From: Methanotrichaceae archaeon
Lineage (GTDB): Archaea > Halobacteriota > Methanosarcinia > Methanotrichales > Methanotrichaceae
Reading direction: 5' to 3'
DNA: 64,000 bases
NCBI GenBank assembly: GCA_963813075.1
Contig: CAWEXU010000030.1
Location: 160,001-224,000, forward strand
Position 1 is the stretch's first letter, and each line of letters begins with the position of its first letter. A model generated the notes under the pieces. The model was not told where the DNA came from. It worked only from the letters and a program-made list of their open reading frames with translations, and did not search any database. A program made the position numbers and the translations under genes. Shown one piece after another: positions 30,894 through 48,262 of this stretch.

Positions 30894-31316
30894 CTAAAGC
30901 TCTCTTCCCAGGGAGGTGGTGGTCAATTTTACATGCTTTACTCCCTTAAGGGCCATCATCCTCTCTGCCGCTCTCCTCACATCAGGACCCTGCCCTCGGA
31001 GAACCACAACCTCCAGGCATATGTCCTGGTCCAGGTGAACATGCAAGCTGGACTGAATTGTGCTGCCGAAATCGTGCTGAATCTCAGTGAGGTTATCCTC
31101 CAGACCTCTTTGAGAGTGGTCGTAAACGATGGTGATCACACCCACCCTCTCCCCTTCCACGTCGCTCATCCATTCGAAATTGACTATATAATTTCTGATG
31201 GCATCCCTGACGCCCTCGGAACGGGAGGAGTAGCCCCTATTCATTATTATCTCATCGAACTTGTTGAGAAGACTCTCTGGCAATGAGATGCCTATCCTCA
31301 TCAGATCCTGTTCCAT
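30894..31316 (-). CDS. nikR: Nickel-responsive regulator NikR
   Basis: RIGISLP RHH strand, [28 protein letters not shown]...CLEV. Confidence 0.95.
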
Positions 31317-31452
31317 CTTTATCGCAATTGCAAATATGGTATTACATAGTAATAAGCTTATTGGAATAGGCCTTCAAAAGGGAGAATTTAATGACAAGAC
31401 CGGTCTCTGAATATAAGATAATTGCATATTTTTCAGAAGACTCGCAAATTTC

Positions 31453-31480
31453 ATATAATAATTGCCATTATTAGTAGCAA
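31453..31480. promoter_or_regulatory. Candidate NikR operator (weaker match)
   Basis: ATATAAT-N14-GTAGCAA just upstream of the ABC operon. Confidence 0.45.
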
Positions 31481-31496
31481 AAAAGGTGGAAAATTT

Positions 31497-33080
31497 ATGA
31501 GACAATCTATGCGCAAGTTGGTATCTGCTCTCATCTTCTCCCTTCTCGTGCTGGGCTCAGCCTGCCTGACGGCAGAGGAGGCGAGCGGAGCGGTTCTGAA
31601 GATTGGCACTCCCAATGTGGTGAAGTCTGCCAGCATCCACGGAGACAGCAACATGGGCGTCTTTTCCCATCTCTCCAATCCGACATTGATGAAGATGGCA
31701 GCCGATGGAAGCATCCAGGGCCTTGCGGCTGAGAGGTGCGAGGTCTCAGAGGACGGCAAGACCTGGAGCTTTATCATCAGAGACGACCTGTACTGGAGCG
31801 ATGGAAATAGGCTCACCCCTGAAGACGTGCAGTTCACATTCAACTACCTCCAAGAGAGATATCCAGCAGCAGGCTGGATGAAGGATATCGTGGAGGATAT
31901 ATCTCTTGAAGGTGAGGACCTGGTTGTCTTCAGGCTGACAAAGCCCTACTCTCGATTGAGCCTGGAGTTCGCCACCTATCCCCTCCTGGCCAAGCACATC
32001 TGGCAGGATGTAGAAGACCCAATGGAATACATCAATGAAGGGGAGATTGTGGGCTTCGGGCCATTCTTTATCACCAAAACCGATCTTGGTGCAGGAATAA
32101 TCTACTTCCAGAGGAATCCTTATTGGAATGGCACGGCACCCAATTTCGATTCCATAGAGATTCACACCTATTCCAACATGGATGTCCTATCCCTGGCCCT
32201 GGAGAAGGGAGAGGTCGATGCTTACTACAAATACGCAGGGACATATCCGTATACCAGCTTGAAAAAGCTCAAAGACACGGGCGACTTCGATTTCGTGGAG
32301 AAGGACAACATCGGCCTGATATTCTTGGGAATGAACCTCAAGCGAGAGCCTATGTCCGATATCAGCTTCAGGCAGGCCCTATCTTATGCTTTGAACTACG
32401 GCGAGATGCTGAGGCTCGATGCCCTGGGTTACGGACAGGTTCCCAATGCGGGATTCGTGCCTCCCAGCATGGATAACTTCAAGGAGACCAATAAGCTGGA
32501 GTATGACCCGTCCCAGGCCAGGGCCATTTTAGAGGATGCAGGCTACAAGGACACCAATGGAAACGGCATCTTGGATGGCAAGGATGGCGAGGATATCAAA
32601 TTGACCATTCTCACCAGGACCGACTACCAGAGGATGACTGAGCTTGTAGTTGATTATCTCAGGGACCTGGGAATCGAAAGCGAGATCAAGAACGTGGACT
32701 CCAGTACCTGGATCAAGCAGAAAGACGAAGGGGAGTACGATCTGACTGTAACCAGGAGCACTCCCTGGGGAATGCTCATGCATGCCAGCTGGGGAACTGG
32801 CTACTTCGACTCCCGCAGGACGGGAGAAGGGGTATTGCATGTGCTGGACGACCAGAAGTTCCAGGGGCTGTGCGATGATATTCTGGCAGCAGCTGACCAA
32901 GATCAGCTTGAGTCCCTTGCCCAAGAGCTGCAGGACTACTATGCACAGAACCTTCCCGGCATTCCCCTTTACTGGAACCTGGTGGTTACCCCTTACAACA
33001 AGGAGTTCACCGGCTGGATTTCCGATCCACTCTATGGAATATTCAATGTGGACAACTTCCTATCTGTGAAGAGGGCCTGA
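31497..33080 (+). CDS. NikA/OppA-family (SBP family 5) substrate-binding protein, probably for nickel
   Basis: SEDGKTWSFIIRDDLYWSDG..LTPEDVQFTF, GFGPF, RNPYWNG, FRQALSYALN; divergent from nikR. Confidence 0.88.
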   Translation: MRQSMRKLVSALIFSLLVLGSACLTAEEASGAVLKIGTPNVVKSASIHGDSNMGVFSHLSNPTLMKMAADGSIQGLAAERCEVSEDGKTWSFIIRDDLYWSDGNRLTPEDVQFTFNYLQERYPAAGWMKDIVEDISLEGEDLVVFRLTKPYSRLSLEFATYPLLAKHIWQDVEDPMEYINEGEIVGFGPFFITKTDLGAGIIYFQRNPYWNGTAPNFDSIEIHTYSNMDVLSLALEKGEVDAYYKYAGTYPYTSLKKLKDTGDFDFVEKDNIGLIFLGMNLKREPMSDISFRQALSYALNYGEMLRLDALGYGQVPNAGFVPPSMDNFKETNKLEYDPSQARAILEDAGYKDTNGNGILDGKDGEDIKLTILTRTDYQRMTELVVDYLRDLGIESEIKNVDSSTWIKQKDEGEYDLTVTRSTPWGMLMHASWGTGYFDSRRTGEGVLHVLDDQKFQGLCDDILAAADQDQLESLAQELQDYYAQNLPGIPLYWNLVVTPYNKEFTGWISDPLYGIFNVDNFLSVKRA

Positions 33081-33944
33081 TGAGCTCTGTGGACGGACCA
33101 GTGGAGGAGCTTTATCAGAGAGACCAGCTACCTGCATGATCTCCGGGCGGAGAAGATCTCCAATGATCAATTCTGGAGGGGATACGGGATCTATGACCAG
33201 GCTCTCAAGCACTCCGGCTATCCGGGGGAGGTCCTGAAAAGGATCTCCTCCTTCATCAGATCTGGCTCCACCCTCCTGGACATCGGAGCGGGCACTGGAG
33301 CCTTTGCCATTCCCCTCTCTCATCTGACCGGTGCAACTGTGGCCCTAGATCCATCGGCATACCAGCTGCAGGTTCTGATCGGCAAGGCCAGAGAGGAGGG
33401 CCTGACAAACATCGCCGTGATCGAGAAGGAATGGAGGGAGGCAAAGCCGGGAGAGATCAGCAAGCTGATCGAAAGGAAGTTCAACTGCAGGAGCGGCGGT
33501 TCCTATCGTCCTGAAATTGATCCGATAGAGAAGAGCATCCGGCCTGAAGTGGACTACGCTCTTGCCGCCTACAGCCTCTTCGACGAGGAGATAGAGGGTT
33601 TTCTGGCCAGGATGATTCATGTCGCCCGAGAGGGCATCTTCATCGTCTTTCGAGCCAGCCACCCGGACTCATTGAGCGAATTCGCCTACGGTCCCAGGCC
33701 CCAGGCAGACTACCTCTGCCTCTACAATATCCTCAAAGATATGGGCCATCAGGTCGATGTGATACTGTTCCCCAGAGACTATCAACTTCCCCTGCAGATG
33801 GTGAATAGACAGTATCGTTTCAGCATTAGGAGTTCGGAGGAGATCGCCGATCACCTGCGTGCGCAAGGGCGGCTGGAGGAGAGGGATGACGGATTGTGGG
33901 CCTCCTTCTCGACCAAAGATGCATTGCTTTATCTGATGAGATAG
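33080..33944 (+). CDS. Class I SAM-dependent methyltransferase-like protein, +1 frameshift near 33086
   Basis: Frame open from 33084: LWTDQWRSF...LLDIGAGTGAFAIPL...VALDPS; the ATG at 33080 overlapping the SBP stop is one base out of frame. Confidence 0.75.
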
Positions 33945-33959
33945 AAGGTTTCAGCAAAA

Positions 33960-34904
33960 ATGTCTCTGGCAGGAAAAAAAGCGATCCGGTACATTCTAGC
34001 CCTCTTTTTAATCGCCTCTTTGAACTTCGCCATTCCCAGGTTGCTGCCCGGCGATCCTCTCACCAACCTCCTGGGGGAGGACGTGATATTGACCGACAGC
34101 AGCGCCCAGGAGCTGCGGCTTAAGATGGGCCTGGATCAGCCCATATCTCATCAATATCTGGAATACTGGGGAAGCCTCCTGAGGCTGGAACTGGGCTACT
34201 CCTTTCATCTGCACAGATCGGTATCTGAGCTCATATTCGATCGCATGAAGTGGACGCTGCTATTGGCGGTACCACCCCTGATCATAGGAGCCGTTTTGGG
34301 GACGATTCTGGGTGCTCTTGCCGGCTGGAGAAAGAGCAGCCGCAGCCAGAGGGCCCAGACGACCCTCTTTCTGGCCATCTACTGCACTCCACCCTATCTC
34401 CTCTCCCTTGTCGTCCTCTACATCTTTGCCTTTCAGCTGGGGCTCTTCCCCTTGAAAGGATTCTATTCCACCGGGTCGATCCAGGATATTGCCCATCATC
34501 TCTTTCTGCCCGCCCTGATGATGACCCTGTTCGCTCTATCCAGGAACTATATGATCATGAGAGGAAGTGTCCTGCAGGAGAAAAGCTGCCATTACGCCTC
34601 TTTCGCCCGGGCCAAAGGGCTCTATGATAAAGAGATCCTGTTTCGTCATGTCTTCAGAAATGCCATCCTCCCCATCATCACCCTCCTCGCTTTGGACTTC
34701 GGCTTCATCCTGAGCGGGGCGCTATTCATCGAGATCGTGTTCTCCATGAACGGAATGGGAAGCCTCATCTATGATGCTCTGCTCTCCCGGGACTATCCGG
34801 TCCTGCAGGGATCGTTTCTGATCATCACCATCATGGTGGTTTCTGCCAATCTGCTGGCCGATCTACTCTACAGCCGTCTGGACCCCAGGGTGAGGTGGCA
34901 GTAA
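33960..34904 (+). CDS. NikB/OppB-like ABC permease
   Basis: PRLLPGDP, MGLDQP, ARAKGL...HVFRNA, IEIVFSMNGMG, RDYPVLQG, LDPRV. Confidence 0.92.
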   Translation: MSLAGKKAIRYILALFLIASLNFAIPRLLPGDPLTNLLGEDVILTDSSAQELRLKMGLDQPISHQYLEYWGSLLRLELGYSFHLHRSVSELIFDRMKWTLLLAVPPLIIGAVLGTILGALAGWRKSSRSQRAQTTLFLAIYCTPPYLLSLVVLYIFAFQLGLFPLKGFYSTGSIQDIAHHLFLPALMMTLFALSRNYMIMRGSVLQEKSCHYASFARAKGLYDKEILFRHVFRNAILPIITLLALDFGFILSGALFIEIVFSMNGMGSLIYDALLSRDYPVLQGSFLIITIMVVSANLLADLLYSRLDPRVRWQ

Positions 34905-35830
34905 TGCCTGGCCTGAATGCTGATCCAGCCACCTGTGGCCCGATGGCGATCATCAGAGAAGAGGAATGCGAAAAGTGCTGCTCCCGGAAGGCTCCTCCTG
35001 AAAGGCCGTGGAGAGGGCTTGGGGCGGGCAGGGCCAGCAGCCTTGGCTTAGCCCTATTTTTAGCCTTCCTGCTCATGGCTGCCTTCTCTCCTCTATTGGC
35101 CCCCCATGACCCCTGGATGAGGTTTGAGCCTTACCTTGGACCGAGCTTGAATCATCTCCTGGGGACGAACGATATGGGGCATGACATATTTTCAGAGCTG
35201 ATCTATGGCTCTCGGGTCTCTCTTTTTGTGGGATTCGGAGCGGCTTTGATGGCGACGATCATCGGCACGGCGGTGGGGCTGCTCTCCGGCTACTTCAAAG
35301 GCACATTGGACGAGATTCTGATGGGAGTTGTCGACATATTTCTCATGATCCCTCAAATCCCTCTGATCATCGTCCTGGCCGCGTACCTCCGTCCCAGCTT
35401 CTGGCTGGTGGCTCTCCTCATGGGGGCTTTATGGTGGACCTCTACAGCGAGAGTTGTGCGCTCAAAGGCCCTGCAGATCAGGGAAATGGGCTATGTGCAG
35501 GCCAAGAGATCCCTGGGCTTCTCCCACTTGAATATCATCCTATCGGATTTGCTTCCCAACATCTCCCATGTGGTGATGCCCAAGTTCATGCTCTCCATAG
35601 CCTCGGCCATGATTGCCGAAGCCTCCATATCCTTCCTGGGCCTGGGAGATTCCTCCATGAAAAGTTGGGGTATGATGATCAACTTCGCCTTCAGCCGGGG
35701 AGGATTCATAAACGGCTACTGGTGGTGGTACCTGTTTCCCGGTCTGTGCATAACTCTATTTGTGCTATCTGTGGTCCTAGTGGGCTTTGTCCTGGAAGAG
35801 AATGATGAAGCGACTCTGAGGCTGGAATGA
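34895..35830 (+). CDS. NikC/OppC-like ABC permease
   Basis: HLLGTNDMGHDIFSELIYGSRVSL, EASISFLGLG, SWGMMI, WWYLFPG; start uncertain. Confidence 0.9.
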   Translation: MAVMPGLNADPATCGPMAIIREEECEKCCSRKAPPERPWRGLGAGRASSLGLALFLAFLLMAAFSPLLAPHDPWMRFEPYLGPSLNHLLGTNDMGHDIFSELIYGSRVSLFVGFGAALMATIIGTAVGLLSGYFKGTLDEILMGVVDIFLMIPQIPLIIVLAAYLRPSFWLVALLMGALWWTSTARVVRSKALQIREMGYVQAKRSLGFSHLNIILSDLLPNISHVVMPKFMLSIASAMIAEASISFLGLGDSSMKSWGMMINFAFSRGGFINGYWWWYLFPGLCITLFVLSVVLVGFVLEENDEATLRLE

Positions 35831-36807
35831 TCGTATCTCATCCCTCTCCGCATAACCGAGATCCGCTCCTTAAGGTCGATGGACTATCAGTCAGCTTCAA
35901 GACCGCCATGGGCCAGGTCCAAGCAGCGCAGGATGTATGCTTCGAGCTGCAAGAGGGAGAGACACTGGCTATGGTGGGGGAGACGGGCTGCGGCAAATCG
36001 GTGGTTGCAAGCGCCATAATGCAGCTTCTTCCCGGCAATGCCTCTGTAGAGGGCCGGGCCATCTTCCGGGGAAGGGACCTTCTCCTTTTCAGCGAGAGGG
36101 AGATGGCCCGCATCAGGGGCAGGGAGATCGCCATGGTGTTTCAAAATCCTTCTTTGGCTCTAAATCCCATCATCCCGGTGGCCGAGCAGATAGCAGAGCC
36201 GCTGGAAATCCATGAGAGCCACCCAAGAGATCGATCTGTTCGCATGGCTGTGAATATGCTCCGCAGACTGGGCCTGGGAGCAAGAGGGATTGGCAGGATG
36301 TATCCATTTCAGCTATCAGGGGGCATGAATCAGAGGGTGATGATCGCCACATCCATGATGCTCTCCCCAAAGATAATAATTGCAGACGAGCCCAGCAAAG
36401 GACTGGACGCTTCCCTGGCCACAGAGGTCATGGGCGAGCTGGCCAGGGTCAAAGATGAGATAGGAGCCTCTCTTTTGCTCATCACCCACGACCTCATGCT
36501 GGCAAGGGATATCTCTGACCGGATGGCGGTGATGTACTGCGGGGAAATTGTGGAGACTGGCCGCTGCCGGGAGATCTTCAAGAGACCCCTTCATCCTTAT
36601 ACGAAGGCTCTCTTTAACTGTCTTCCGGAGAAGGGCTTTCAGCCCATACCGGGAAGCTCGCCCTCCATGATCGAGCCGCCCAAAGGCTGCAGGTTCCATC
36701 CTCGCTGTTCGAGAGAAGAGGAGAGGTGCAGAGGACGGCCAAAGATGATTCAAATGAATGGGAGAGAGGATGAGCTGGCCAGGGAGGTGAGATGCTGGCA
36801 ATACTGA
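35827..36807 (+). CDS. NikD/OppD-like ABC ATPase
   Basis: GETGCGKS, LSGGMNQR, ADEP, ITHD, HPYTKAL, C-terminal GCRFHPRC. Confidence 0.93.
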   Translation: MIVSHPSPHNRDPLLKVDGLSVSFKTAMGQVQAAQDVCFELQEGETLAMVGETGCGKSVVASAIMQLLPGNASVEGRAIFRGRDLLLFSEREMARIRGREIAMVFQNPSLALNPIIPVAEQIAEPLEIHESHPRDRSVRMAVNMLRRLGLGARGIGRMYPFQLSGGMNQRVMIATSMMLSPKIIIADEPSKGLDASLATEVMGELARVKDEIGASLLLITHDLMLARDISDRMAVMYCGEIVETGRCREIFKRPLHPYTKALFNCLPEKGFQPIPGSSPSMIEPPKGCRFHPRCSREEERCRGRPKMIQMNGREDELAREVRCWQY

Positions 36808-37481
36808 AGGCTGTGAATGTCAGCAAGAGCTATGAATCCGGACTGATCTTTAAAAAGCAGCATCAAATCATCCAGAACATATCCCTGGAGATGGAGGAGG
36901 GCAGGACCCTGGGATTGATGGGAGCCTCCGGCAGCGGCAAGACCACTCTGGGTACCATCCTGGCCGGCCTGGAGAGGCCATCTTCCGGTTGCGTCCTCTT
37001 TCAGGAGGAGGATATCCGCAGTCTGCGGGGAAGGGAGTATCTCGCCTATAGGAGGGGAGTGCAGATGGTCTTTCAGGATCCAGAGGGATCACTTAACCCC
37101 AGGAAGAGCATCGGGCGCTCGATATTTGAGGTCTTTTCCCTGCTCAAGATCCCAAAAAGAGAATGGCTGAAAAAAGCCTGCGAGATCCTGGAGAGGGTGG
37201 ACTTGTCCAATGAGCTCCTCTGCCGCTATCCGGCCCAGATCTCAGGAGGGCAGTGCCAGAGGGTAGCCCTGGGCCGGGTGCTGCTCCTGGAGCCCAAAGT
37301 CATCATCCTGGACGAGCCAACATCAGCTCTTGACATATCGGTCCAAGCCCAGATTCTGAATCTCCTCCGGGACCTGCAGATGGATTTAGGGCTGACATAT
37401 CTTCTCATCTCCCATAGGCCTGAGGTGATCCGTTTCATGGCCCATGAGACTGTGATACTGGAGAGCGGTGCTATCCTATGA
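36792..37481 (+). CDS. NikE/OppF-like ABC ATPase
   Basis: GASGSGKT, QMVFQDP, ISGGQCQR, LDEPTSALDISVQAQIL. Confidence 0.92.
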   Translation: MLAILKAVNVSKSYESGLIFKKQHQIIQNISLEMEEGRTLGLMGASGSGKTTLGTILAGLERPSSGCVLFQEEDIRSLRGREYLAYRRGVQMVFQDPEGSLNPRKSIGRSIFEVFSLLKIPKREWLKKACEILERVDLSNELLCRYPAQISGGQCQRVALGRVLLLEPKVIILDEPTSALDISVQAQILNLLRDLQMDLGLTYLLISHRPEVIRFMAHETVILESGAIL

Positions 37482-37659
37482 ATAGGGATGGGTCAAAATC
37501 CCGGGCCGCTGGCAGAAAAAAAAGGAGAGCAGAGTTCGATACCCATTGAGCGTTTAAAAGGCATGCATAAGATCATGGACGTAGATCAATACTCGATATG
37601 ATGCATGCCAGACTCGCAAAGATGGAGTGTTGGTATCGACTCGGCATTAATACTAAGGT

Positions 37660-37687
37660 ATAATACTATAAATGGTTTTCGTAATAC
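37660..37687. promoter_or_regulatory. Candidate NikR operator
   Basis: ATAATAC-TATAAATGGTTTTC-GTAATAC, a 28-bp dyad. Confidence 0.65.
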
Positions 37688-37856
37688 AAAATTTTAAAAT
37701 ATTAAGTTAATGCTTCCAGGAGATAGACCCGGGGAATCTGCAAATGAAGATGAACTCCCAGATATCGACCAGACACAATTCGCCATGAAGTTCAGCATAA
37801 AGCCGGGCGAGCCGCAGCCGGATGTCGTGAAGCAATACTAACATAATTAACACATA

Positions 37857-37884
37857 TTATTACTAATCAAAAAGTATTTAACAA
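37857..37884. promoter_or_regulatory. Candidate NikR operator overlapping a TATA-like sequence
   Basis: TTATTAC-N14-TTAACAA, 30 nt before the ATG at 37914. Confidence 0.45.
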
Positions 37885-37913
37885 CAGAAGACTGATAAGG
37901 AGTGGTGAATTCC

Positions 37914-38717
37914 ATGAAGAAGGCTTTGTTTGTGTTACTGCTCCTGATTGGGGCGGCAACCATGAATGCAAGTGGCCACAATGTGTGGCTGGAATCGCGG
38001 GATCAGGCAAATGTGGGAGATAACCAGACTCTGTATGCTCTCTATGGCCATCTCGATGATGTAATTGGCATAACCGCTCCAGCTATTGAATCAGCCTTTT
38101 TGCTGGCCCCGAATGGTCAGAAGACAGACCTGACAGACCTGGAGACAAATACTGGCGACTGGCTTCCAGGATACGGCTGGATAGGTTATGCCTGTAGCAA
38201 CGTGACCTATTCCCTGCCTGGCGACTACCTCTTCGCTGTCGCTCGAACCCCCTCCGTCTATGATCCCGCCTGGCATGGCAGCGGGCCCAGCACCCCCAGG
38301 CTGGGCTATAGCGTGGCCAAAATGGTGATCAATGTGGGAAACGAGAGCAATAAAACCAGCTGGGATACAGGAACCGCATTTGACATCAATCCCGATAAAG
38401 CGCCCTATGCGATACATGCAAAAGAGAATGTGACCTTCCTGGCCAAATACAACGGCCAGCCTGTGAATGCCACCTACTCTGCCTTCCCCAATAGCGCCAT
38501 GACCCTCACTCAAACCGGGTCCACCGGAAGTGACGGCTCATTCAGGGTCAACTTCAGCCAGGGTGGATTGTGGCAGGTCAGCGCCAGCTATGATATCAAC
38601 GAGCCGGCAACCTGGACCGCAACAATGGAGAGCGCAGGCCACTACAAGGTCGGTGACGTGGTACCCTACAATACAACCAGATACAGCACATACATGATGG
38701 TATATGTGAGGAAGTGA
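37914..38717 (+). CDS. DUF4198-like secreted nickel-uptake accessory protein
   Basis: Signal peptide then HNVW...LYGH; AKMVINVG; YNGQPV; TGSDG. Confidence 0.75.
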   Translation: MKKALFVLLLLIGAATMNASGHNVWLESRDQANVGDNQTLYALYGHLDDVIGITAPAIESAFLLAPNGQKTDLTDLETNTGDWLPGYGWIGYACSNVTYSLPGDYLFAVARTPSVYDPAWHGSGPSTPRLGYSVAKMVINVGNESNKTSWDTGTAFDINPDKAPYAIHAKENVTFLAKYNGQPVNATYSAFPNSAMTLTQTGSTGSDGSFRVNFSQGGLWQVSASYDINEPATWTATMESAGHYKVGDVVPYNTTRYSTYMMVYVRK

Positions 38718-38782
38718 GGCCCCCACCATTTTCCCCTTTTTTTTCTCAAGAATATGATTTAATTCTAATATGGAAAGGTTTT

Positions 38783-38810
38783 TTAATACTGAAGGACATC
38801 TCGGTATATG
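38783..38810. promoter_or_regulatory. Candidate NikR operator
   Basis: TTAATAC-N14-GTATATG, ending 5 nt before the ATG at 38816. Confidence 0.55.
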
Positions 38811-38815
38811 ATATT

Positions 38816-39600
38816 ATGAGGACGATTGCTTTGTTGATACTGTTGGGATTGATGATATCCTCTGCAACAGCTCATTCTCTCTATGCCGAGTTTCCCCAGG
38901 ACCTGGGGGCCGACTCCGAAACCGAATTCTGGATCGCTTATGGCCATGGAGGATCTGCCGATTCCCAGATAGAATCATTGCCCCTGGCCCGGCTGATCTC
39001 TCCAGATGGCAGCGAGAGCGAGCTATCTTTAGAGCCCTATCAGGACGGGCTGAAGGGATCTGTGGCCTTCGATGAGCCGGGCTGCTACATCATGGACCTG
39101 CAGATGGAGACGACCTTCTTCGATCCCTCCTGGTTTGGAGCAGCGGGCAAGAAGAGCCTGGTGGAGAAGTACGGCCGGGTGCTCATGCCCTTCCAGTCCG
39201 GCGAGGGTTATGACTGGTCCAGCGGAAAAGGCCTGGAGATTGTGCCCGAAACCGATCCCTATCAGCTCGAATCCGGTGAGGACTTCAAGGCCCGTGCCCT
39301 CTAGAACGGCAAGTCCGTGCCCGGCAGCTACAGCGCAGTCATCACCCGATCTCCTCAGGACGTCCTGGTGGTCCAGCATGCCCAGGAGAGTGAGATCTCC
39401 GGGGAAAGCGAGGACGGCGTCATCCGCTTTGCCACCGGAAGAGCAGGATTATGGGTGCTGACATTTGAGGCCACCATTGTGAGAGCGGAACCTGGACTGC
39501 AGTTGAGGATGATCCTTCCGGGAACTACAACAAAGGCGACCAGCTCGAGTACGATGAGGTCGCTCCCACCGCTTACCTCACCATCTGGGTAAAGGACTGA
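38816..39600 (+). pseudogene. Second DUF4198-like protein, interrupted by an in-frame TAG (39302-39304) and a 1-nt deletion near 39480
   Basis: HSLY...AYGHGG, LEIVPETDP; KARAL*NGKSVPGSYSA aligns with LAKYNGQPVNATYSA of the upstream paralogue; the shifted frame gives ESGTWTAVEDDPSGNYNKGDQLEY...LTIWVKD. May be sequencing error. Confidence 0.7.
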
Positions 39601-39608
39601 GGCGATAA

Positions 39609-40239
39609 ATGGTCCATATCTCCGATGGCGTCCTGCCCCCGACCATGCTGGCGGCAGGATTCCTCTTCACTACTTATCCTGCTCGTTCTCTCTTTGAAGA
39701 GCATACAGATAGAGGAGATTCCCAAGATCTCATTGATCACAGCCGCGCTGTTCGTGGCCAGCCTGGTCCACTTCCCTGTGGGCCCCACATCAGTTCACCT
39801 GATAATGAACGGTCTCGCTGGCATACTGCTGGGACGAAGGGCCTTTATCGGTGTCTTTGTAGCCCTGACACTGCAGGCGGTCTTCTTTCAGCATGGAGGC
39901 CTAACCGTGATGGGGGTCAATGCCTTCAACATCGGCGTGCCCGCCTTGCTCGCCTGGCAGCTATTTGAGAAGAGAAGAGGCCTGGAGTCCCCCCGCCTGG
40001 AGGCGGTCTTCGGTGCTCTTGCCGGGGGACTGGCCGTCCTGGCGTCGGTGCTAATGGTCTCCCTGGAACTGCTGACTCTGGGTGAGGCATTCAATGAGAT
40101 ATCGCTCCTGGTGATAGGCGCTCACTTGCCGGTGATACTCATAGAAACAGCAGTGGTGGGAGGAGCAGCAGGATTTCTCTTAAAAGTCAAGCCAGAGATG
40201 CTGGCGGATAGCAATAGAGGGACTATGGAGGTAAATTGA
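39609..40239 (+). CDS. cbiM: NikM/CbiM ECF substrate component, frameshifted near 39668
   Basis: MVHISDGVL N-terminus in one frame; FVASLVHFPVGPTSVHL, LQAVFFQHGGLTVMGVN in the next. Confidence 0.85.
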
Positions 40240-40240
40240 G

Positions 40241-40561
40241 ATGAGGTGGATACCAGCTTTGATTATTGCCGCCCTGCTCCTGGCGGGAGCGGCCAGTGCT
40301 CACAGGATGTTTGTAGGCCAGCAGATAACCGTGGACCTGTTCGTCTTCTATGACGATGGCAGCCCGGCAGCCAATGCCGAGGTGAGGCTCTATCAGGAGG
40401 GAGAGCTTTATGCCGAGAACGTCACCGATGCCACAGGAAGGTTTACCGTCACCCTTCCGGGAAAAGGAACGGGAAACTGGAGCTATGAGGTCCAGGGAGG
40501 AGGACATACCGAGAAGGGCTTCATAAGTATCAACAATACTCTCTCAGGAAAAAGCAGGTGA
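40241..40561 (+). CDS. Small secreted prealbumin/carboxypeptidase-regulatory-like fold protein (NikK/L-like)
   Basis: Signal peptide then HRMF; YDDGSPAANAEV, TDATGRF, GGGH. Confidence 0.65.
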   Translation: MRWIPALIIAALLLAGAASAHRMFVGQQITVDLFVFYDDGSPAANAEVRLYQEGELYAENVTDATGRFTVTLPGKGTGNWSYEVQGGGHTEKGFISINNTLSGKSR

Positions 40562-40565
40562 TGAG

Positions 40566-40973
40566 ATGAAGGCCCTATTGGCCCTGGTTTTCCTTCTCCT
40601 CCTGACTGTTCATCCTACCTGCGGCCACAGGATGATGATGGGCTATCAGGTAAATGAGATTCAGGTGACCGCTCTTTATGACGATGGAACCCCGGCTCAA
40701 GGAGTGGAGATCGAGGTTCAGAGCGAGGGCGAGACCATAGAAAAAGGGGTGACGAACGATAAGGGCACCTATGTCGTCCGGCCTGACGAGGGAACGGGAG
40801 ATCTCACATTTGTGAGCTACTCGACCGGACACAGGGCAGAGCTCGACCTGGACCTGGTGCAGAAGGAGGCACAAGAGCAGGTCTCAAGGCCCCTCCGAGT
40901 GGCAGCAGGCCTTGGCTATCTGCTGGGAGCTGCAGGGTTGGCCATGATCTTCATAACCAGAAAGAAAAGATAA
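40566..40973 (+). CDS. Membrane-anchored NikL/CbiL-like protein
   Basis: Signal peptide then HRMM; YDDGTPAQG, TNDKG, TGH; C-terminal TM AGLGYLLGAAGLA followed by RKKR. Confidence 0.68.
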   Translation: MKALLALVFLLLLTVHPTCGHRMMMGYQVNEIQVTALYDDGTPAQGVEIEVQSEGETIEKGVTNDKGTYVVRPDEGTGDLTFVSYSTGHRAELDLDLVQKEAQEQVSRPLRVAAGLGYLLGAAGLAMIFITRKKR

Positions 40974-41034
40974 AAAGCCGGGGGAAGATAAGAGCGCATG
41001 GTGAGTCAAGAGCGGACAGTGAGCAGAGGCGAGC

Positions 41035-41785
41035 ATGAGCAACTTTAACCCAGAGAGGTACTCAGACCTTAATTCGCCTTTACACCGCTGGGAGACGCGG
41101 ATCAAGCTCATCTCCCTCTTTGTGCTGATCGTCTCCATTGTCATCGCGGAAGAGGTCAGCCAGGCTCTGGCAGGGCTAATAGTAGCAATTCTACTGGTCC
41201 TGATATCAAGGCTTCCATTCCACCACGTCCTGAGATTCATGAAGTGGCCCTTCATATTTCTTCTGCCCTTGCTGGTCATCCTTCCCTTTACCGTCGAAGG
41301 GGCAGACTCTGTTCAGCTACCACTCTATTACATTCAGCCGCCAGGGTCTGCATCTCGGACTGCTGTTTATGATCAGGGGAATTGCCGCCGCCCTCCTGGC
41401 CCTGATTATGGCGGGAACAGCTCCATTCAATGTGAACATCAATGCCTTAAAGAGCCTTGGCATGCCCGGTCCTCTCACCCAGATCTTCCTATTCGCCTAT
41501 CGCTATATCTTCCTCTTGAATGAAGATCTGCAGACCATGAGAAGGTCTCTTGCCTCCAAGGGATTCGAGACGAGGTCATCTACCAGATCGGCCCGCATAA
41601 TGGCGATGGCTGTGGCAATGCTTCTCATCAGGAGCTATGAGCGATCGGAGTATGTCTTCAATGCCATGCTCTCTCGTGGCTACCAGGGAAGATTGCCCTC
41701 CGGCCGGAAGATGATGATCAAAGGCATCGATCTGCTCAAGGGATTTTCGGTTGTGGCAGCGGCTCTGTTAATTCAGTTTGTCTAA
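41035..41785 (+). CDS. cbiQ: NikQ/CbiQ ECF transmembrane component, +1 frameshift at G-run 41299-41302
   Basis: SPLHRWETRIKL...ILPF, then FAYRYIFLL, LLIRSYERSE, AMLSRGY. Confidence 0.85.
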
Positions 41786-41819
41786 GGATATTCATTTGAT
41801 CGCGAGATTGGCAGGTAGT

Positions 41820-42653
41820 ATGATGAATCTGGAAAAAGCCATAGAGGTTGAGGATCTCAGCTACAGCTACTCTGATGGAACGCGTGCCCTGGATGGGGTC
41901 AGCTTCTCCCTGGCAGAAGGAGAGTCCCTGGCTCTGCTAGGGCCCAATGGAGCGGGCAAGTCCACACTGCTGCTTCACTTGAATGGACTGTTAAGAGGGC
42001 AGGGAAAGGTCAGGATTCGGAACAAAGAGATCAGCGATGAGAGCCTGAGATGGGTCCGAAGCCAGGTGGGAATGGTCTTTCAGGATCCGGATGATCAGCT
42101 CTTCATGCCCAGTCTGGATGAGGATGTGGCCTTCGGTCCGGCGAATATGGACCTGTCCCAAGAGGAGGTGGATGAGAGGGTGCAATGGGCACTGCAATGC
42201 GTTGGCCTCTCCGACCTGGAGGCAAAGGTGCCTCACCACCTGAGCTTCGGCCAGAGGAAGAGAGCCGCTTTTGCCACCGTCCTCTCCATGAGGCCTCAGG
42301 TGTTGGTCCTGGATGAGCCCACCTCGAACCTGGATCCCCGCTCCAGGATGGAGATGGTCTCCCTCATCCGAGAGCAGCAGAGAAAGGGAACGGCCATCAT
42401 CACCGCCACCCATGATGTGAACCTGGTGGCTCTGCTGGCGGACAGGGTTCTTCTTCTCAATAAGAGCATCGTGGCCGAGGGTAGTGTTCATCAGATCATG
42501 AGCAGGAGGGATTTGATGGATGATCTGGACCTGGAGGTGCCCATCCTTGCCGATCTATTCAAGACTCTGCAGGAGGAGGGACTGTATTCTGGGGCCATTC
42601 CCTTCAAGAAGGATGAGGCCATTGGGGCGATAAGAGAGATGCTCCGGATCTAG
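41820..42653 (+). CDS. cbiO: NikO/CbiO ECF ATPase
   Basis: GPNGAGKST, FQDPDDQLF, DVAFGP, LSFGQRKR, LDEPT. Confidence 0.92.
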   Translation: MMNLEKAIEVEDLSYSYSDGTRALDGVSFSLAEGESLALLGPNGAGKSTLLLHLNGLLRGQGKVRIRNKEISDESLRWVRSQVGMVFQDPDDQLFMPSLDEDVAFGPANMDLSQEEVDERVQWALQCVGLSDLEAKVPHHLSFGQRKRAAFATVLSMRPQVLVLDEPTSNLDPRSRMEMVSLIREQQRKGTAIITATHDVNLVALLADRVLLLNKSIVAEGSVHQIMSRRDLMDDLDLEVPILADLFKTLQEEGLYSGAIPFKKDEAIGAIREMLRI

Positions 42654-42758
42654 GCGTGAATTCTCAGGCAATTATGCCCTTTTTGGCCAGCGCTAGAAAG
42701 CCAATGGAAACGGTAAAAGGCCAAAAGAGGATGAAGCCCAGGAAATAATCCCCGGGCT

Positions 42759-43628
42759 TTAAAAGTCGGTTCTCAGGACCACAGTCGCCCGATAGACGGG
42801 GCCTACAAATGTCTTCTCATTGGAGTCCTCACCGCTGAGGTGCGTCCTTGGCCTCCACCACCCGGGTGTCCATGAGGGTATCGGCAACAACCACCCACTC
42901 GCTCAGCTCATCTGTGCTGGACAGGTTGAGGCTCACCTTTCCTTCTGCATCGGTCATGCCTCTTATCTTCGTATCATCGCCAACCTTCTGAGCGATCAGC
43001 TCCATGTCGCTGAAGGGCTGGCCCTGATACAGAACCTGGAACTGGAAGTCGCCGTTGCCCACCTCGGTGATATTGGTGAGGGGCACGATCTCCAGTATCT
43101 GTCCCACGGGCTTTGAGGCAATGGAGTAATCAGAATCAGGACCGGCTATGAATGACTTGCCATAGGTGTGGAGGGGATAAGATCTCTCGACATACCAGTC
43201 ATTGGCCCAGCCGGTCTTGTTGATGGCGTCAAAGTCGATCTCATCCACTGTGCCAGCCTCCCAGTATCCAGTTGCCGGAGGATTGGTGATGATGTGAGTC
43301 CAGGCTCCACCGCCGTTATAGGAGGTTATGACGTACAATCCCGGGTGCTCGACATCGAAGCTGAAGATGGGCCAGTTGCCCATGGTATCGATCTTTTCAT
43401 CGAGAATATGATCGATCACCTCGCCATCCTGTCTGATTATGGTCAGGTTGGTCAATCCCTCAGGCATCTCTGTGGAGGAGGTGTTGTGACCGGCGGCCAC
43501 AGGCAGTATGGCTGTATCTCCTAATATTCACAAAGCCGGATATGGGCCGGACGAATATCTGATGAGCGTTCACTGCTGCCGGAGAAAATAGCATTAGCAG
43601 CACCAGCTATTAGCAATAGTCTTCTCAT
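42759..43628 (-). pseudogene. Third DUF4198-like protein, three +1 frameshifts (near 43607, 43523 and 42838)
   Basis: Reconstructed MRRLLLI-LVLLMLFSPAAVNA|HQIF...AAGHN...PVGQILEIVPL...FQVLYQGQP...TDAEGKV...GPVYRATVVLRTDF. Confidence 0.7.
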
Positions 43629-43674
43629 ACTCTGTACACCGATCTGATTTAGGATATCACACTATACTTAAACT

Positions 43675-43702
43675 TTGCTACTAAATTAGAGAAATGTAAT
43701 TT
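43675..43702. promoter_or_regulatory. Candidate NikR operator next to the TATA box of the 43628 gene
   Basis: TTGCTAC-N14-GTAATTT. Confidence 0.55.
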
Positions 43703-43859
43703 CAAATCGTATTATTAATCTGTATATCGATAAGCAGCCCAAAGATTCAGGCAGATCATATAAGATCATCCCGAGCGGCTGGCAGTAGGCGGCTACCTCC
43801 AGTCTAGGTACAGCAGGTTGCCGGTAGAAGTTAAAGATCAAGTGATTGAGTAGAAGAAT

Positions 43860-43916
43860 CAAAAAATAAGGACATTAATGCTGCTCAATTCTGAGAGCCA
43901 GAGAATTGGCTCTCAG
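43860..43916 (-). terminator. Perfect 10-bp hairpin over the stop codon of the His-rich microprotein, followed by a T-tract
   Basis: CTGAGAGCCA-GAGAAT-TGGCTCTCAG (43891-43916); A6 at 43861 on + reads T6 on -. Confidence 0.65.
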
Positions 43917-44038
43917 TGTTTGTGGCAGCACTTATGGGTGTGATTATGATGCTCTTTGTCGTGAACATGTTCGTGCTCATGCATCTTTCCATCATGCTCA
44001 TGGCATGCGACGTGTTTATCGCCGGTATGACAGCACAT
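43913..44038 (-). CDS. 41-aa His/Cys-rich microprotein (Hpn-like candidate nickel-storage peptide); absent from the ORF track
   Basis: MCCHTGDKHVACHEHDGKMHEHEHVHDKEHHNHTHKCCHKH (14 His, 5 Cys); SD GGAGGTGA 6 nt upstream; AAAGCTTTTATA BRE/TATA-like box at about 44101-44089; terminator hairpin. Confidence 0.85.
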   Translation of the reverse strand: MCCHTGDKHVACHEHDGKMHEHEHVHDKEHHNHTHKCCHKH

Positions 44039-44391
44039 TTGTTTTCACCTCCGATTTTACTTTCACAATATAAACTCGATCAGCAGGCTATAAAAGCTTT
44101 ACTGTTATCGATAATCGCTGAAGCTGTTTAAATTTTTTAAAGGAAGATTTTGTTGTCGTCATAATTACAGTGATTGTAATAGAGAAAAAATCATCTAAGA
44201 ATCCCTATTCGTATCAATTAGTATTACCACATCCAGCTTCACTCCGCTAACTAATAGCGGGAATAATCGATCATCGAGACCTTAGGATCTCCTCCAAATC
44301 AGGGCCACAATGAACCGCCAGACTGAGGACTATTCACCTGCCTACAGGCTTATTCTTCTCCGAGAATTCCTCGCGCAGGGATCATGTCGGA

Positions 44392-44631
44392 TAGCCCATC
44401 CCAGAAATCCTCCAACTTGCTTCACATTGGACACCAATCTGGGGAATGAAATTGAATGCCAATTCTGAAAATAGAAAAATTCGCAAGTATATACCAAGAG
44501 GTAGCAATCATTCTCTTGGCCGGGGCGATTTTATATTTGATAAGTCCGAGCTAGAGATACAGAGCGCCGCTTTCTGATGCAGCATTAGATCAATGGAATT
44601 TAAAATTCATCCCCCGCAAAATGAGGATTGC
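44392..44631. mobile_element. Possible MITE or IS-end remnant
   Basis: Non-coding ~240 bp bounded by imperfect inverted ends TAGCCCATCC...GGATTGC; resembles, from memory only, a dispersed Methanothrix repeat. Unverified. Confidence 0.3.
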
Positions 44632-44750
44632 AGGAAAAGGGCACCGCAAATGGAGTGTTTTGATGGACCATCTCCCCGCCGCATAGATGATTCCGAGACG
44701 GCGTGCTGCCTGGACAGCCAGAGCGGGCAACGTCAGGCATCCGTGCACCC

Positions 44751-45126
44751 TTACAGCTCGTCATCCAGGCCGCATAGAGAGCAGCGATGGTGCCATTTGG
44801 GCTCGGCCACGAACTGGACAGGATCGCCGCTGGCATAGCGGTTGGCACATCGGCTGAATTAGCTCTGGCGCCTCCGAGGGCGATATGCTCCCGGGCTTGA
44901 TCCTTCCCAGCTCCCGCCCCAGGACGCCAAAGCGACCCTCTGTCTTATCGACGGTTACGACAGCATATTCAGGGGAGACTTCGCTCTCGCCATCGCTCAA
45001 GAAGAGCAGCTTATCATGATAGAAGCTGCAGCAAAGAGGCCAGCTGCAATAGAACATCGCTTTTATCAGCTCGTCTTTGCTCTTTATCTCCTGGAAGGAG
45101 AACGCACGATCTGGATGATTCATCAT
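44751..45126 (-). CDS. Hypothetical protein with C-terminal HHxCxxC, frameshifted near 44850
   Basis: MMNHPDRAFSF...WPLCCSF...; the shifted frame gives ANRYASGDPVQFVAEPKWHHRCSLCGLDDEL*. Confidence 0.6.
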
Positions 45127-45295
45127 ACTCACCTTGCTCTTTTGGACCTGAAGATAGATCTCTCTTTGATCCAGCAACAGATCTAATTATTACAATATTA
45201 TATACTATTCTTACAACATAAGATCTTTTCGGTGTGATTTATGAAAAGCGGTTTATCCAGCCCGACTGAGCGAGCGATGGATCTCATATCCCAAG

Positions 45296-45781
45296 TTATT
45301 CCTCTTTTCTCTTCTCCAGCACCCGAATCATCTCAATTACCGTCTCTGGATAGTTGCCCGTTTTGTCCTTCTCCAGATACTTGACCATATCCCAGATGTT
45401 CAGCAGTGCCACGCTCACACCGGTGAGAGCCTCCATCTCCACTCCCGTTCTTCCAAAGGAGGTCACTGTGACTGTGGCCCAGACTCTGATCTCCTCCAGC
45501 TCGAATCTTATCTCCAGACCGGTTATGGGAATGGGGTGGCAGAGAGGAATCAGACGGGGAGTATCCTTGACTGCCAGGATGGCCGCCAGCCTGGCGGTAG
45601 CCAGGGGATCACCCTTCTTTATATCTCCACTGCGCATGGCCTGGAGTGTAGACTCCTTCAGCCTTATCGATCCCGTAGCAGTGGCCTTTCTATAGACCGG
45701 CGGCTTGGAGGTGATATCCACCATACCCTCAAGCTTTTCTGCCCCGACAACCTCTATTGATCCCGCTTCCTCTTCCTTCAT
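45296..45781 (-). CDS. moaC: Cyclic pyranopterin monophosphate synthase
   Basis: MVDITSKP, KKGDPL, LIPLCHPI, TGVEMEALTGV, IWDMVK. Confidence 0.95.
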   Translation of the reverse strand: MKEEEAGSIEVVGAEKLEGMVDITSKPPVYRKATATGSIRLKESTLQAMRSGDIKKGDPLATARLAAILAVKDTPRLIPLCHPIPITGLEIRFELEEIRVWATVTVTSFGRTGVEMEALTGVSVALLNIWDMVKYLEKDKTGNYPETVIEMIRVLEKRKEE

Positions 45782-45854
45782 CCTCTCTCCCCCGATTCTC
45801 AGATCTTGTCCCCTTCTCTCACCGGCCTCAGTTTCCCACATTGCATTCGCTTTC

Positions 45855-47252
45855 CTAGATTCTCATGGCCCGAGGGATCGATTCCACCAGATCGGTGGCC
45901 AGCATACCGAATCCCTTCTCCAGATAGACCAGATCGCCCGCCCTACCATTTACGAAGGCTGCTGCGCTCGCCGCCCGCAGGGCAGATGTGCGGGCATAAA
46001 AGGCGGCCACAATACCCGCCAGAACGTCGCCCGTCCCGCCCACGGTCATCCCTGGGTTGCCGGTGGTATTGGCCCTCATAACCTCACCATCGGTGATCAG
46101 GTCGACCTTTCCCTTGAGCAGAACGGTTATGCCCTTCTCCCGGGCATAGCCCTTCAAAGGCTCGGTCCGTTCCTTATAGTCCAGGTCCAGTAGAGATATG
46201 CCGCTGATCCTCTGAAACTCTCCGGCATGGGGGGTGATAATGCCCTTCAGGGGAAGGTCCGGCAGGAGGGCATCGGCATCGATCACCACCTTCTTGGCCA
46301 GCGGGATTATGCATGAAAGTGCTTCAAGGGTATCGGTATGTCTTCCCAATCCCATGCCCATCACCACCACATCGTGAGCTGCGACTAGATCCTGCAGTGC
46401 CGGCAGATCACTGGAATTGAGGTGATCTCCAGATAGCTCTCGCACAATCAGGTCCGGCGAGAAGCCGGAGATGGTCTTTGCCGCCCTTCTTGGCGCAGCC
46501 ACGGTGACTATATCCGCCCCCGCCCGCAGAGCAGCCAGGGCAGTGAGAGCAGGAGCGCCGGTATAAGGCCCGCCACCTATGACCAGGATCCTGCCGCTAT
46601 CCCCTTTATGACTCTCCAGTGATCTCCTTCCCACAAGCCGCAGGTCTCCGGGCCCCACGAAAAGCTCGGCCTCTGGAGGTATGCCGATATCTGCCACAAC
46701 AACCCCCTCCCCCAGATCCGGTTTTGGTCGGTGAAATGTGACAGTATAATCAGCCCGCACCACCTTGTTGGTCCCCAGACCGCTGGGAATGTCCACCGAT
46801 AGCACCCTCTTGCCTGAACGGTTGATGGCATCGATCGCTGCTGCCTCAAGGCCGGCCACCCTTCCTTTTACTCCGGTCCCGAAGATGGCATCCACAATCA
46901 GGTCGCATTCAATGAGCATAAGGTCATCGACATCCCTTACCTCTCGCAAATCCCAGTGCAAGCGCTCCAGGATCTCCCAGTTCCTCTTTGCCTCTCCGGT
47001 GGATATATCGCGGGAGCGGCCCAAAAGGTATACGGTAACACCAAAACCTGCTAAATGGCGGGCAGCGACGAAGGCATCGCCGCCATTGTTTCCCCGGCCG
47101 GCAACTATTGCAATTCTCTTTCCCGGAGATATTGCCGCGATCTCTCGGGCTATGGCAGCACCAGCATTTTCCATCAGCTGGAGAGGGAGCAGCCCGAAGT
47201 ACTGGCAGTTGGCGTCCACGGCCTGCATCTCTTCGCGGGATATCATTCTCAT
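45855..47252 (-). CDS. nnr: Bifunctional NAD(P)H-hydrate epimerase/dehydratase (NnrE-NnrD)
   Basis: LMENAG, GRGNNGGD, DAIFGTG, SVDIPSG, SHKGDSG, ITPHAGEF, GGTGDVLAG. Confidence 0.94.
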   Translation of the reverse strand: MRMISREEMQAVDANCQYFGLLPLQLMENAGAAIAREIAAISPGKRIAIVAGRGNNGGDAFVAARHLAGFGVTVYLLGRSRDISTGEAKRNWEILERLHWDLREVRDVDDLMLIECDLIVDAIFGTGVKGRVAGLEAAAIDAINRSGKRVLSVDIPSGLGTNKVVRADYTVTFHRPKPDLGEGVVVADIGIPPEAELFVGPGDLRLVGRRSLESHKGDSGRILVIGGGPYTGAPALTALAALRAGADIVTVAAPRRAAKTISGFSPDLIVRELSGDHLNSSDLPALQDLVAAHDVVVMGMGLGRHTDTLEALSCIIPLAKKVVIDADALLPDLPLKGIITPHAGEFQRISGISLLDLDYKERTEPLKGYAREKGITVLLKGKVDLITDGEVMRANTTGNPGMTVGGTGDVLAGIVAAFYARTSALRAASAAAFVNGRAGDLVYLEKGFGMLATDLVESIPRAMRI

Positions 47253-48262
47253 ATAGATCGATTTATCTCCTGCAACTGCCTTCTCTTTTCCCTATCCGCC
47301 TTTCCCCAGTCCTTGTAGGTATACATCTTCGCATCATAGCCGAGCATCGTCAGAGAAAACCACATCACAGAGGCCTTGGTCCCTGTGGTGGTGAAAACGA
47401 CCACCGATTTGTTTAAAGTTAAATTGCTGAAGATCCCTTCAAGCTCGCTTTTCCCCCGGATTAACTTATTATCCAGGACTTCATCATAGGGAATATTGAT
47501 GGCACCAGGTATCGATCCGTACTCGAACTCCTCTTTGGATCTGGCATCCACGATCTGAGCCTCTCCACTCATCACATAATCATAGGAGGCATACAGCCCC
47601 TCATTCAGGACAGGGGAATAGGTGCTCATTGGCCGGGTTATGGATGAGTTTTCAACTGGCAGTCCCGCCTGTACCCAGGCATCTATCCCGCCGTTTAGCA
47701 CCCGGATATCCTCATGGCCCATATAGCGCAGCAGCCAGTAGACATAGGTAGCAGTAGAAGGACCTCCCCCGCAGGGCTGGCATTCACCATAAACCACCAG
47801 CGGATCGCTGCGGGAGATGCCAGCATCTCCCAGAATACCAGCGATATCAGAGATGTTCTTGAGGGAGGCGGTGTTGTTATTGTCCACGAATTCCCGGTAT
47901 GAGATCTGGACAGCGCCGGGAATGAATGAGGCCGGATTGTCGCTGCCATCCAGGATTACATCCTCCTTTGAGATCTCTTGAGGTGATACAAGCATACCGC
48001 GAGCGGATTGGCTCCCGGATTCCATCCCATCCTCAGATGGCACTGATTTCACCTCCAGACCGGGCTGGCTGGCTGGAGTGGCACTGACTTGCTCGGACAG
48101 GTAATTTCCGGTGATTTTATGGATCGCCTCATTTATCCAACTATCCACAAAATTGCAGGTGGAGCACTCGGCGCTGGCGGATGAACAAAAGATCGTCATC
48201 GTCAAAAGGATTATTCCAAGCGCCATTATTGCGCTCTTGGCGGTTGATTTGATTTCAGACAT
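47249..48262 (-). CDS. Secreted tandem-domain rhodanese/sulfurtransferase-like protein
   Basis: Signal peptide; FIPGAVQI, YWLLRYMGHEDIRVLNGGIDAW, IVDARSKEEF, SIPGAINIP. Confidence 0.85.
   Translation of the reverse strand: MSEIKSTAKSAIMALGIILLTMTIFCSSASAECSTCNFVDSWINEAIHKITGNYLSEQVSATPASQPGLEVKSVPSEDGMESGSQSARGMLVSPQEISKEDVILDGSDNPASFIPGAVQISYREFVDNNNTASLKNISDIAGILGDAGISRSDPLVVYGECQPCGGGPSTATYVYWLLRYMGHEDIRVLNGGIDAWVQAGLPVENSSITRPMSTYSPVLNEGLYASYDYVMSGEAQIVDARSKEEFEYGSIPGAINIPYDEVLDNKLIRGKSELEGIFSNLTLNKSVVVFTTTGTKASVMWFSLTMLGYDAKMYTYKDWGKADREKRRQLQEINRSI

Follow-up and report, generated by a model that had tools for sequence, protein, structure and literature searches.

A conserved His/Cys-rich peptide gene shared by Methanotrichaceae and Desulfobaccales-type bacteria, with a proposed role in metal buffering tied mainly to nickel

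At the edge of a nickel-type gene island in a Methanotrichaceae archaeon lies a reading frame for a 41-residue peptide rich in histidine and cysteine. Is this a gene, and what might so small a protein do? Here, we address both questions from the 64,000 nucleotide stretch of DNA in which it lies (hereafter the window), from the genome to which the window belongs and from related loci in archaea and bacteria. The features of the window to which we refer are as follows.

43913..44038, minus strand: His/Cys-rich peptide gene, 41 aa, with the family motif MCCH...(HxHxH-G-xx-HxHxH)...HxHxCCH
44045..44052, minus strand: Shine-Dalgarno sequence GGAGGTGA, 6 nt upstream of the ATG
44088..44100, minus strand: A-rich BRE/TATA-like element, a sequence pattern
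43891..43916, minus strand: 10-bp hairpin that overlaps the stop codon and belongs to a longer predicted stem
43860..43869, minus strand: T-tract, beginning 22 nt beyond the hairpin
43916..44131, plus strand: hydrophobic 71-aa antisense ORF, unconserved, which shadows the His codons
44221..44227, minus strand: lone NikR-like half-site GTAATAC, at about -190
42829..43628, minus strand: downstream gene of the DUF4198 type, broken across frames; a candidate NikR-like dyad of its own lies at 43681-43654
44751..45126, minus strand: upstream gene of an unnamed 122-140 aa family, frameshifted here, with a W-P-L-C motif and a C-terminal HH-x-CxxC
30894..42653: the island, comprising nikR, an SBP_bac_5 ABC operon, two DUF4198 genes, a cbiM/nikM-type S component, two small Ig-like genes, cbiQ and cbiO

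The ORF at 44038-43913 translates exactly as the preliminary description of this DNA had it, into 41 aa with 14 His and 5 Cys; its Cys-Cys pairs are residues 2-3 and 37-38. That description also credited the ORF with a complete expression unit. The Shine-Dalgarno sequence, the TATA-like box and the hairpin are all present, and the hairpin region folds with z = -5.9 against 200 shuffles of 96 nt. The T-tract, however, stands 22 nt off, and a terminator scan called no minus-strand terminator at the hairpin or T-tract. The hairpin at the stop codon is likely a 3′ end or stability element, and the T-tract is a possible archaeal terminator. Among the 18,648 ATG-started ORFs of 25-70 aa in its own genome the peptide is the richest in His (34%). 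Only 10 of these ORFs reach at least 20% His, and among those 10 a Shine-Dalgarno sequence is found only at the window peptide. Its place at the top of the ranking, together with the sole Shine-Dalgarno sequence among the His-rich ORFs, argues that it did not arise by chance.

The peptide belongs to a family. Used alone as a query, the peptide sequence found matches in 17 of 41 relatives at E <= 10 and in 49 of 105 Methanotrichaceae genomes at E <= 0.01. An alignment of 45 full-length copies contains 16 invariant columns, namely the start Met, 3 Cys, 11 His and one Glu; C2, C37 and C38 are invariant and C3 is kept in 44 of the 45. Synonymous divergence exceeds non-synonymous divergence (pS > pN) in 990 of 990 pairs, and the median dN/dS is 0.12, taken from the 176 pairs with pS < 0.7, the remainder being saturated and excluded. 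Orthologues keep the His/CC pattern, whose loss the preliminary description had named as a refutation. Lengths are fixed at 38-43 or 53 aa with 4 Cys and 12-21 His, the His alternating as HxH and making up about one residue in three with a longest run of 2-3. For comparisons between loci we used the 67 with a complete MC[CG]H...CCH reading, of which 55 are from Methanotrichaceae, 9 bacterial and 3 from Methanospirillum. All 67 keep a ribosome-binding site (GGAGG in 64, GAGGTGA in 3). A raw pattern count finds a TATA-like sequence in 43 of the 55 Methanotrichaceae loci, mostly 46-78 nt before the start, and the downstream region folds with z < -2 at 23 of the 67. Judged by its sequence, the ORF is a real gene, conserved and under selection. 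The preliminary description had called the 71-aa ORF on the opposite strand spurious, and so it proves. Among 45 orthologues this antisense frame stays open for anything from 10 to more than 70 codons and in 3 it stops inside the span of the peptide, whilst its median identity is 47% compared with 74% for the peptide frame. We therefore reject it as a real gene.

The window copy has one peculiarity, a fifth Cys (C12) found in no other copy where the typical member has four. Position 11 is Ala there and His in 44 of 45 aligned sequences, and the Ala11-Cys12 codons differ from those of close orthologues in the way expected if one base had been gained and another lost in compensation. Moreover, genes are split over frames at 11 of 85 places tested in the assembly, cfbB and cfbC included. 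Given this pattern and the frequency of split genes, the fifth Cys may be an assembly error. Within 38714-45126 of the window the split genes are DUF4198, the start of cbiM, cbiQ and the unknown gene upstream of the peptide; cfbB and cfbC are split at C10:46065-48261 of the genome. These are likely indel errors of assembly, not decay. Sequencing depth in four sets of assembled contigs was flat through the gene and the silent flanks of one orthologue (L044:7000-8500). This region is contained in 23 runs, one of them recorded as RNA, in every case as contigs, and flat depth in such contig data is uninformative about transcription.

Annotation has largely passed the family by. Pfam gave no family at E <= 0.01 for the peptide, there was no match to the family in NCBIfam or among plasmid sequences, and HMM searches of PDB sequences returned none. 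A profile search of 1.84 billion protein representatives yielded 6 hits, all from the family itself, of which three begin at a wrong start and one diverges at its end; the two database hits that we looked up are both called ‘hypothetical protein’. The preliminary description had placed the gene below the cutoff of the ORF track. All 8 genome-derived sequences tried (seven of the family and one Cys-free His peptide) are missing from 15 billion called proteins. The nearest ESM Atlas clusters are unnamed hypothetical proteins of 53 aa (scores 0.90 and 0.85), which we regard as leads, and a homologous-protein search with the bacterial form returned 2 candidates, neither scored. The literature searched contains no description of the family; subscription papers lay mostly outside its coverage, and supplementary tables could list members. 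Gene callers usually miss so small a gene, and the family is a mostly unannotated one that spans two domains.

Within Methanotrichaceae, the profile matches 53 of 104 other genomes, a figure that includes partial, decayed or fused hits (L082, L167, L169, L170, L172) and a second type of peptide. This second type is 37-39 aa long with a fifth Cys (L164, L165, L166, L168, L171) and lies in a conserved cluster with a CDF transporter and an FrhB-like gene, joined in L168 by MCR component A2. None of the 287 genomes from seven other families of the same class was matched by the profile. Beyond it, matches occur in 5 of 401 genomes of the archaeal class of Methanospirillum and in 55 of 83 genomes of the bacterial class of the Desulfobaccales-type hits. 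Among 361 genomes drawn from the phylum of that bacterial class there were 11, of which 10 belong to the same class and one is a weak hit in a long frame. By record titles, carriers are Methanothrix, Methanosaeta, Methanotrichaceae, Ca. Methanocrinis, three Methanospirillum and several Desulfobaccales-type bacteria, Desulfobacca acetoxidans among them; of the 58 loci in the cross-taxon search, 3 (L127, L140, L141) are merely parts of long proteins that happen to be rich in His. In bacteria the peptide has 53 aa in 79 of the best 80 metagenome loci (130 were confirmed), the central turn being longer by 14 residues, and in 30 of 35 distinct sequences from bacteria TTGAC is found 40-80 nt upstream. 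The description of the peptide as archaeal is too narrow, since the 53-aa form is common in one class of anaerobic bacteria. The gene is absent from about half of Methanotrichaceae genomes and four copies are decayed (L082, L167, L169, L170), which together imply that it is dispensable. Its patchy spread over two domains suggests horizontal transfer across them. We claim neither donor nor direction; 38 low-complexity positions are too few to root a transfer.

AlphaFold2 predicts a two-strand hairpin for the window peptide (residues 8-15 and 18-25, pLDDT 61) and a four-strand meander for the 53-aa bacterial form (pLDDT 62). With low confidence, the beta-hairpin would place the alternating His on one face, an arrangement that fits both the invariant HxHxH-G-xx-HxHxH and an insertion exactly at the turn. 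Foldseek found no match for the 53-aa model in the PDB at E <= 0.001. Complex prediction of a homodimer with four Zn scored 0.00, which weighs neither for nor against a multimer. The peptide sequence has no visible signal peptide or membrane segment, and the peptide likely stays cytoplasmic.

We next consider the neighbouring genes, taking DUF4198 to be a NikK-like component and PDGLE a NikN-like one. The window gene lies at the edge of its nickel-type island, with nikR 12.6 kb away. Across the 67 loci, whose relatedness means that neighbour counts overstate independence, a cbiM/nikM-type gene (Ni/Co ECF) lies within 7 kb of the peptide gene at 24: 18 of 55 in Methanotrichaceae, 6 of 9 in bacteria and none of 3 in Methanospirillum. 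As a baseline, 1.65% of the window's genome falls within 7 kb of such a gene, and Methanotrichaceae genomes carry about 2.5 of them each. One is also near the peptide gene at 8 of 15 further long-flank bacterial loci, a set partly overlapping the first. The commonest ECF type is MHIPDG/PDGLE without CbiN (12 loci), compared with 6 loci of MHIMEG with CbiN; the available text of PMC2667541 treats CbiN as a mark of Co uptake. Moreover, cfbC and cfbB, both above their NCBIfam cut-off, lie directly upstream of the peptide gene in three related loci (L068, L069, L081). In one genome (G042, L172:5457-6359) a PDGLE-type operon encodes an ECF ATPase whose long His tail terminates with the C-terminal two thirds of the peptide, including the CCH; this tail aligns to the peptide with a local score of 122 against a shuffle mean of 53. 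After the fused gene come a CbiN-type ECF operon and a CDF transporter whose ends are rich in His. At least four distinct Ni/Co-related contexts can be told apart, namely the PDGLE-type ECF, cfbC-cfbB, the island of the window and the bacterial ECF.

Some metal gene is found at 48 of the 67 loci, a tally biased upward because the probes were picked from these neighbours. No tested metal gene lies within 7 kb at 19 of 67 loci (some on short contigs; L044, L047 and L048 included), or at 9 of the 44 with long flanks. Among those without one is L044, which at 85% identity is the closest orthologue, whilst the second closest, L045, has only a DUF4198 gene. An Rfam search of 28000-48000 of the window gave 0 matches, so neither a NiCo nor a cobalamin riboswitch was found there. 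The unnamed 122-140 aa family represented upstream of the window gene occurs within 7 kb of the peptide at 14 of 67 loci (e.g. L066:8832-9215) and at three places in the window's genome. It has no name in Pfam, NCBIfam or ESM Atlas and is likely a metal-binding protein. A RiPP precursor was also considered and rejected, as no modifying enzyme recurs among the neighbour clusters scanned.

Is the gene under the control of NikR? In the nikR promoters of Methanotrichaceae a GTARCAY-type half-site immediately follows the TATA box and has a weaker partner 14 nt further along (18/30), and the half-site just behind the TATA box takes the form GTAGCA in 9 of 30. These half-sites are akin to the delta-proteobacterial NikR signal GTGTTAC-N13/14-GTAACAC as given in the accessible part of PMC545781. 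Candidate operators of the form GTARCAY-N14-weak partner (L238-L267; window 31319-31345, 37660-37687 and 43654-43681) lie directly behind the TATA box of nikR genes that look leaderless, and close to the promoters of DUF4198 and SBP genes; their partner site is the weaker one. In the peptide promoters TGCTAC, the reverse complement of GTAGCA, occurs at -150..-110 in 26 of 54, compared with a mean of 0.3 and a maximum of 2 in 1000 shuffles; this test is post hoc, the motif having first been noticed in these same promoters. Its distance from the TATA-like box is 67-70 nt in all 24 promoters with a called box, under different upstream genes. Enrichment of the full NikR-like dyad, scored by a matrix trained on nikR promoters, is modest at best: it reaches at least 10 bits in 12 of the 54 peptide promoters, compared with a mean of 5.0 and a maximum of 9 in shuffles, in 6.7% of 357 control promoters and in 1 of 26 bacterial promoters. 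Three identical copies of a secreted-looking gene on different contigs (MRTRVFAL start; C21:10761, C22:27747 and C26:4866 of the genome) carry NikR-like dyads that rank near the top of the control set. The promoter in the window scores 7.8 bits, below threshold, and lacks the proximal TGCTAC half-site of its relatives. A symmetric dyad (GTRWYAC-N13/14-GTRWYAC) shows no enrichment, occurring at no more than 2 mismatches in 1 of 55 Methanotrichaceae promoters (shuffles 3.0) and in 0 of 27 bacterial ones. All 5 loci of the class of Methanospirillum, two of them nearly identical, have a dyad close to the published signal at -79..-83.

These sites are a lead: NikR may control the peptide gene in many relatives. 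The half-site lies upstream of the TATA box and not over it, which would suit activation, as described for hpn in the part of PMC4671568 available. Many of these genomes have two NikR paralogues, and one methanogen NikR has been suggested as a zinc sensor in the accessible text of PMC3087415. The preliminary description had tied the peptide to the neighbouring NikR/Nik locus. At the level of the family this tie stands, through the ECF operons, cfbC-cfbB, the ATPase fusion and the half-site. For this island it is weaker than proposed, given the distance to nikR, the neighbourhoods of L044 and L045 and the sub-threshold promoter.

Hpn of Helicobacter was the comparison first proposed, with the reservation that the likeness would be convergent. 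By every search run the family is not homologous to Hpn, all 6 profile hits among the 1.84 billion representatives being of the MCCH family; homology was judged by profile search and against Pfam and NCBIfam. Both the peptide and Hpn or Hpn-2 are very small, rich in His, equipped with CC pairs and overlooked by annotation. According to the available text of PMC4671568, Hpn has 60 aa, 28 of them His (about 47%) and mostly in stretches, with CC motifs at one end; it binds 5 Ni along with other metals, sequesters Ni, is upregulated by NikR and is reported there only from gastric Helicobacter. In contrast to its clustered His, those of the peptide family alternate strictly, at fixed lengths and in a predicted hairpin, and where Hpn has one or two CC motifs at one end the family has one CC at each. 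Instead of gastric Helicobacter, the family occupies Methanotrichaceae, Methanospirillum and Desulfobaccales-type bacteria. Hpn is upregulated by NikR; in the peptide family a half-site shared with nikR promoters occurs in 26 of 54 relatives and is missing from the copy in the window and from 25 of 26 bacterial promoters. By analogy, the peptide would work like Hpn but is not an Hpn.

Two other groups of proteins invite comparison. Bacterial metallothioneins (SmtA/BmtA, MymT) are small and dominated by Cys in CxC/CxxC clusters. The peptide is likewise small, contains Cys and His and presumably sequesters metal, but it has 4 conserved Cys as two CC pairs with 12-21 His and lacks a Pfam match. 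UreE, HypB, SlyD and CooJ carry His-rich tails. HspA also has one, according to the part of PMC4671568 available. In such tails, whether of HspA or of an ECF ATPase, His serve as a metal-binding extension, and in G042 the peptide is itself such a tail. It is normally, however, a free-standing gene with its own Shine-Dalgarno sequence and promoter-like element, and has terminal CC pairs. By inference, we propose a new family among the small His-rich metal-sequestering proteins, cross-domain and mostly unannotated.

What, then, might the peptide do? The reading that we prefer, and consider somewhat probable, is a cytoplasmic buffer or store of several metal ions, tied mainly to nickel uptake and use; the genomic contexts favour nickel as the metal. 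Rows of His would bind Ni(II), Co(II) or Zn(II) and the CC pairs would supply additional thiolate sites. Surplus metal from NikMNQO-type transporters would be taken up by the peptide and passed to F430 and CODH/ACS maturation, and in many relatives Ni-loaded NikR, bound some 68 nt upstream of the TATA-like box, may increase transcription of the gene. A bolder version, which we offer tentatively as possible, is that this is the first dedicated archaeal nickel storage or relay peptide, a His-lined hairpin with CC caps, kin to the His tail of the Ni ECF ATPase, shared through horizontal transfer among acetate-using methanogens, Methanospirillum and Desulfobaccia, and activated by Ni-loaded NikR from upstream of the TATA box.

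Alternatively, the peptide may play a metallothionein-like part, buffering metals in general or with a bias to Zn and Co, and its gene may travel between metal-transport islands with no particular link to nickel. We regard this reading as doubtful. Cys pairs favour Zn, Cu or Cd. Other metal neighbours at the 67 loci include ZnuA/ABC-3 at 8, FecCD-type genes at 9, CDF at 6 and cbiK at 4, in addition to the 6 loci with a CbiN-type ECF, and a scan of 11 bacterial loci revealed cobalamin riboswitches at 4. However, the riboswitches lie on the strand opposite the peptide gene and cbiK is convergent with it, so neither shares a transcript with it. The PDGLE-type ECF operon is the most frequent single context, and the adjacency of cfbC-cfbB and the ECF-ATPase fusion point to Ni. 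That Hpn binds Zn, Co, Cu and Bi in vitro, as stated in the available text of PMC4671568, again speaks for generality.

Rather unlikely, in our judgement, is a dedicated chaperone or detachable cytoplasmic module of a Ni ECF transporter that carries metal from the ATPase to maturation proteins. A natural fusion to the C-terminus of the ATPase exists in G042, unfused ATPases of these operons end in a tail whose His alternate in the same way (local score 77, shuffle mean 41), and in many loci the peptide gene follows nikO in the same direction. Yet this is one fusion among all the loci read and could be a deletion between similar His-codon tracts, whilst the gene, which has a Shine-Dalgarno sequence and a promoter-like element of its own, frequently lies at a distance from ECF operons. 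Moreover, a Cys-free His peptide from the same loci scores as well (109 against 61), such that the likeness may be compositional. A leader peptide, which would sense histidine or metal during translation and control the downstream gene through the stop-codon hairpin, would account for that strong hairpin in the window and for the metal-uptake-type gene next on the same strand. This is very improbable and we consider it largely refuted: the downstream gene varies and is often convergent (L046, L067, L068, L072, L135, L139), the downstream DUF4198 gene has its own promoter-like region, and conservation is in the amino acids, not the RNA letters. That the ORF is non-coding, a low-complexity chance frame or a shadow of the antisense ORF, would suit its low complexity and the absence of all 8 tested sequences from called proteins, but is scarcely credible with a dN/dS of 0.12, with start, stop and Shine-Dalgarno sequence conserved over three lineages and two domains, and with an antisense frame that is not.

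Methanogens have a high nickel demand. A buffer of the kind that we prefer, tied mainly to nickel, would fill a role for which apparently no protein has been described in these microbes, and the form in which methanogens hold nickel is called an open question in the accessible part of PMC10617489, a study of Methanosarcina barkeri. The peptide family cannot be the general methanogen answer, as it was found in none of the 287 genomes in other families of the class. A peptide of 38-41 residues can be synthesised, however, making the question of how nickel is held testable for Methanothrix-type acetoclasts, the trace-metal-sensitive organisms of digesters. If our reading is true, an Hpn-like protein would have arisen a second time, independently, and the family would offer a possible case of an archaeal NikR acting as an activator.

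Lastly, we note two further features. At several loci (L046:6864-7046, L049, L054, L062, L063, L076, L080, L176, L177, L179) a small Cys-free, His/Glu-rich ORF of 27-119 aa with varying HE repeats lies between the ECF ATPase and the unknown upstream gene. It matches nothing in NCBIfam and has no counterpart in the screen of 25-70 aa ORFs of the window's genome. It has its own Shine-Dalgarno sequence and TATA-like box, together with a half-site, GTRTTAC, near -125; a 5′ inverted repeat (TAGTCA...TGACTA) is also conserved. Elsewhere in the window, the minus strand of 54452-59320 encodes several large, Cys-rich and secreted-looking repeat proteins that share their N-terminal regions.
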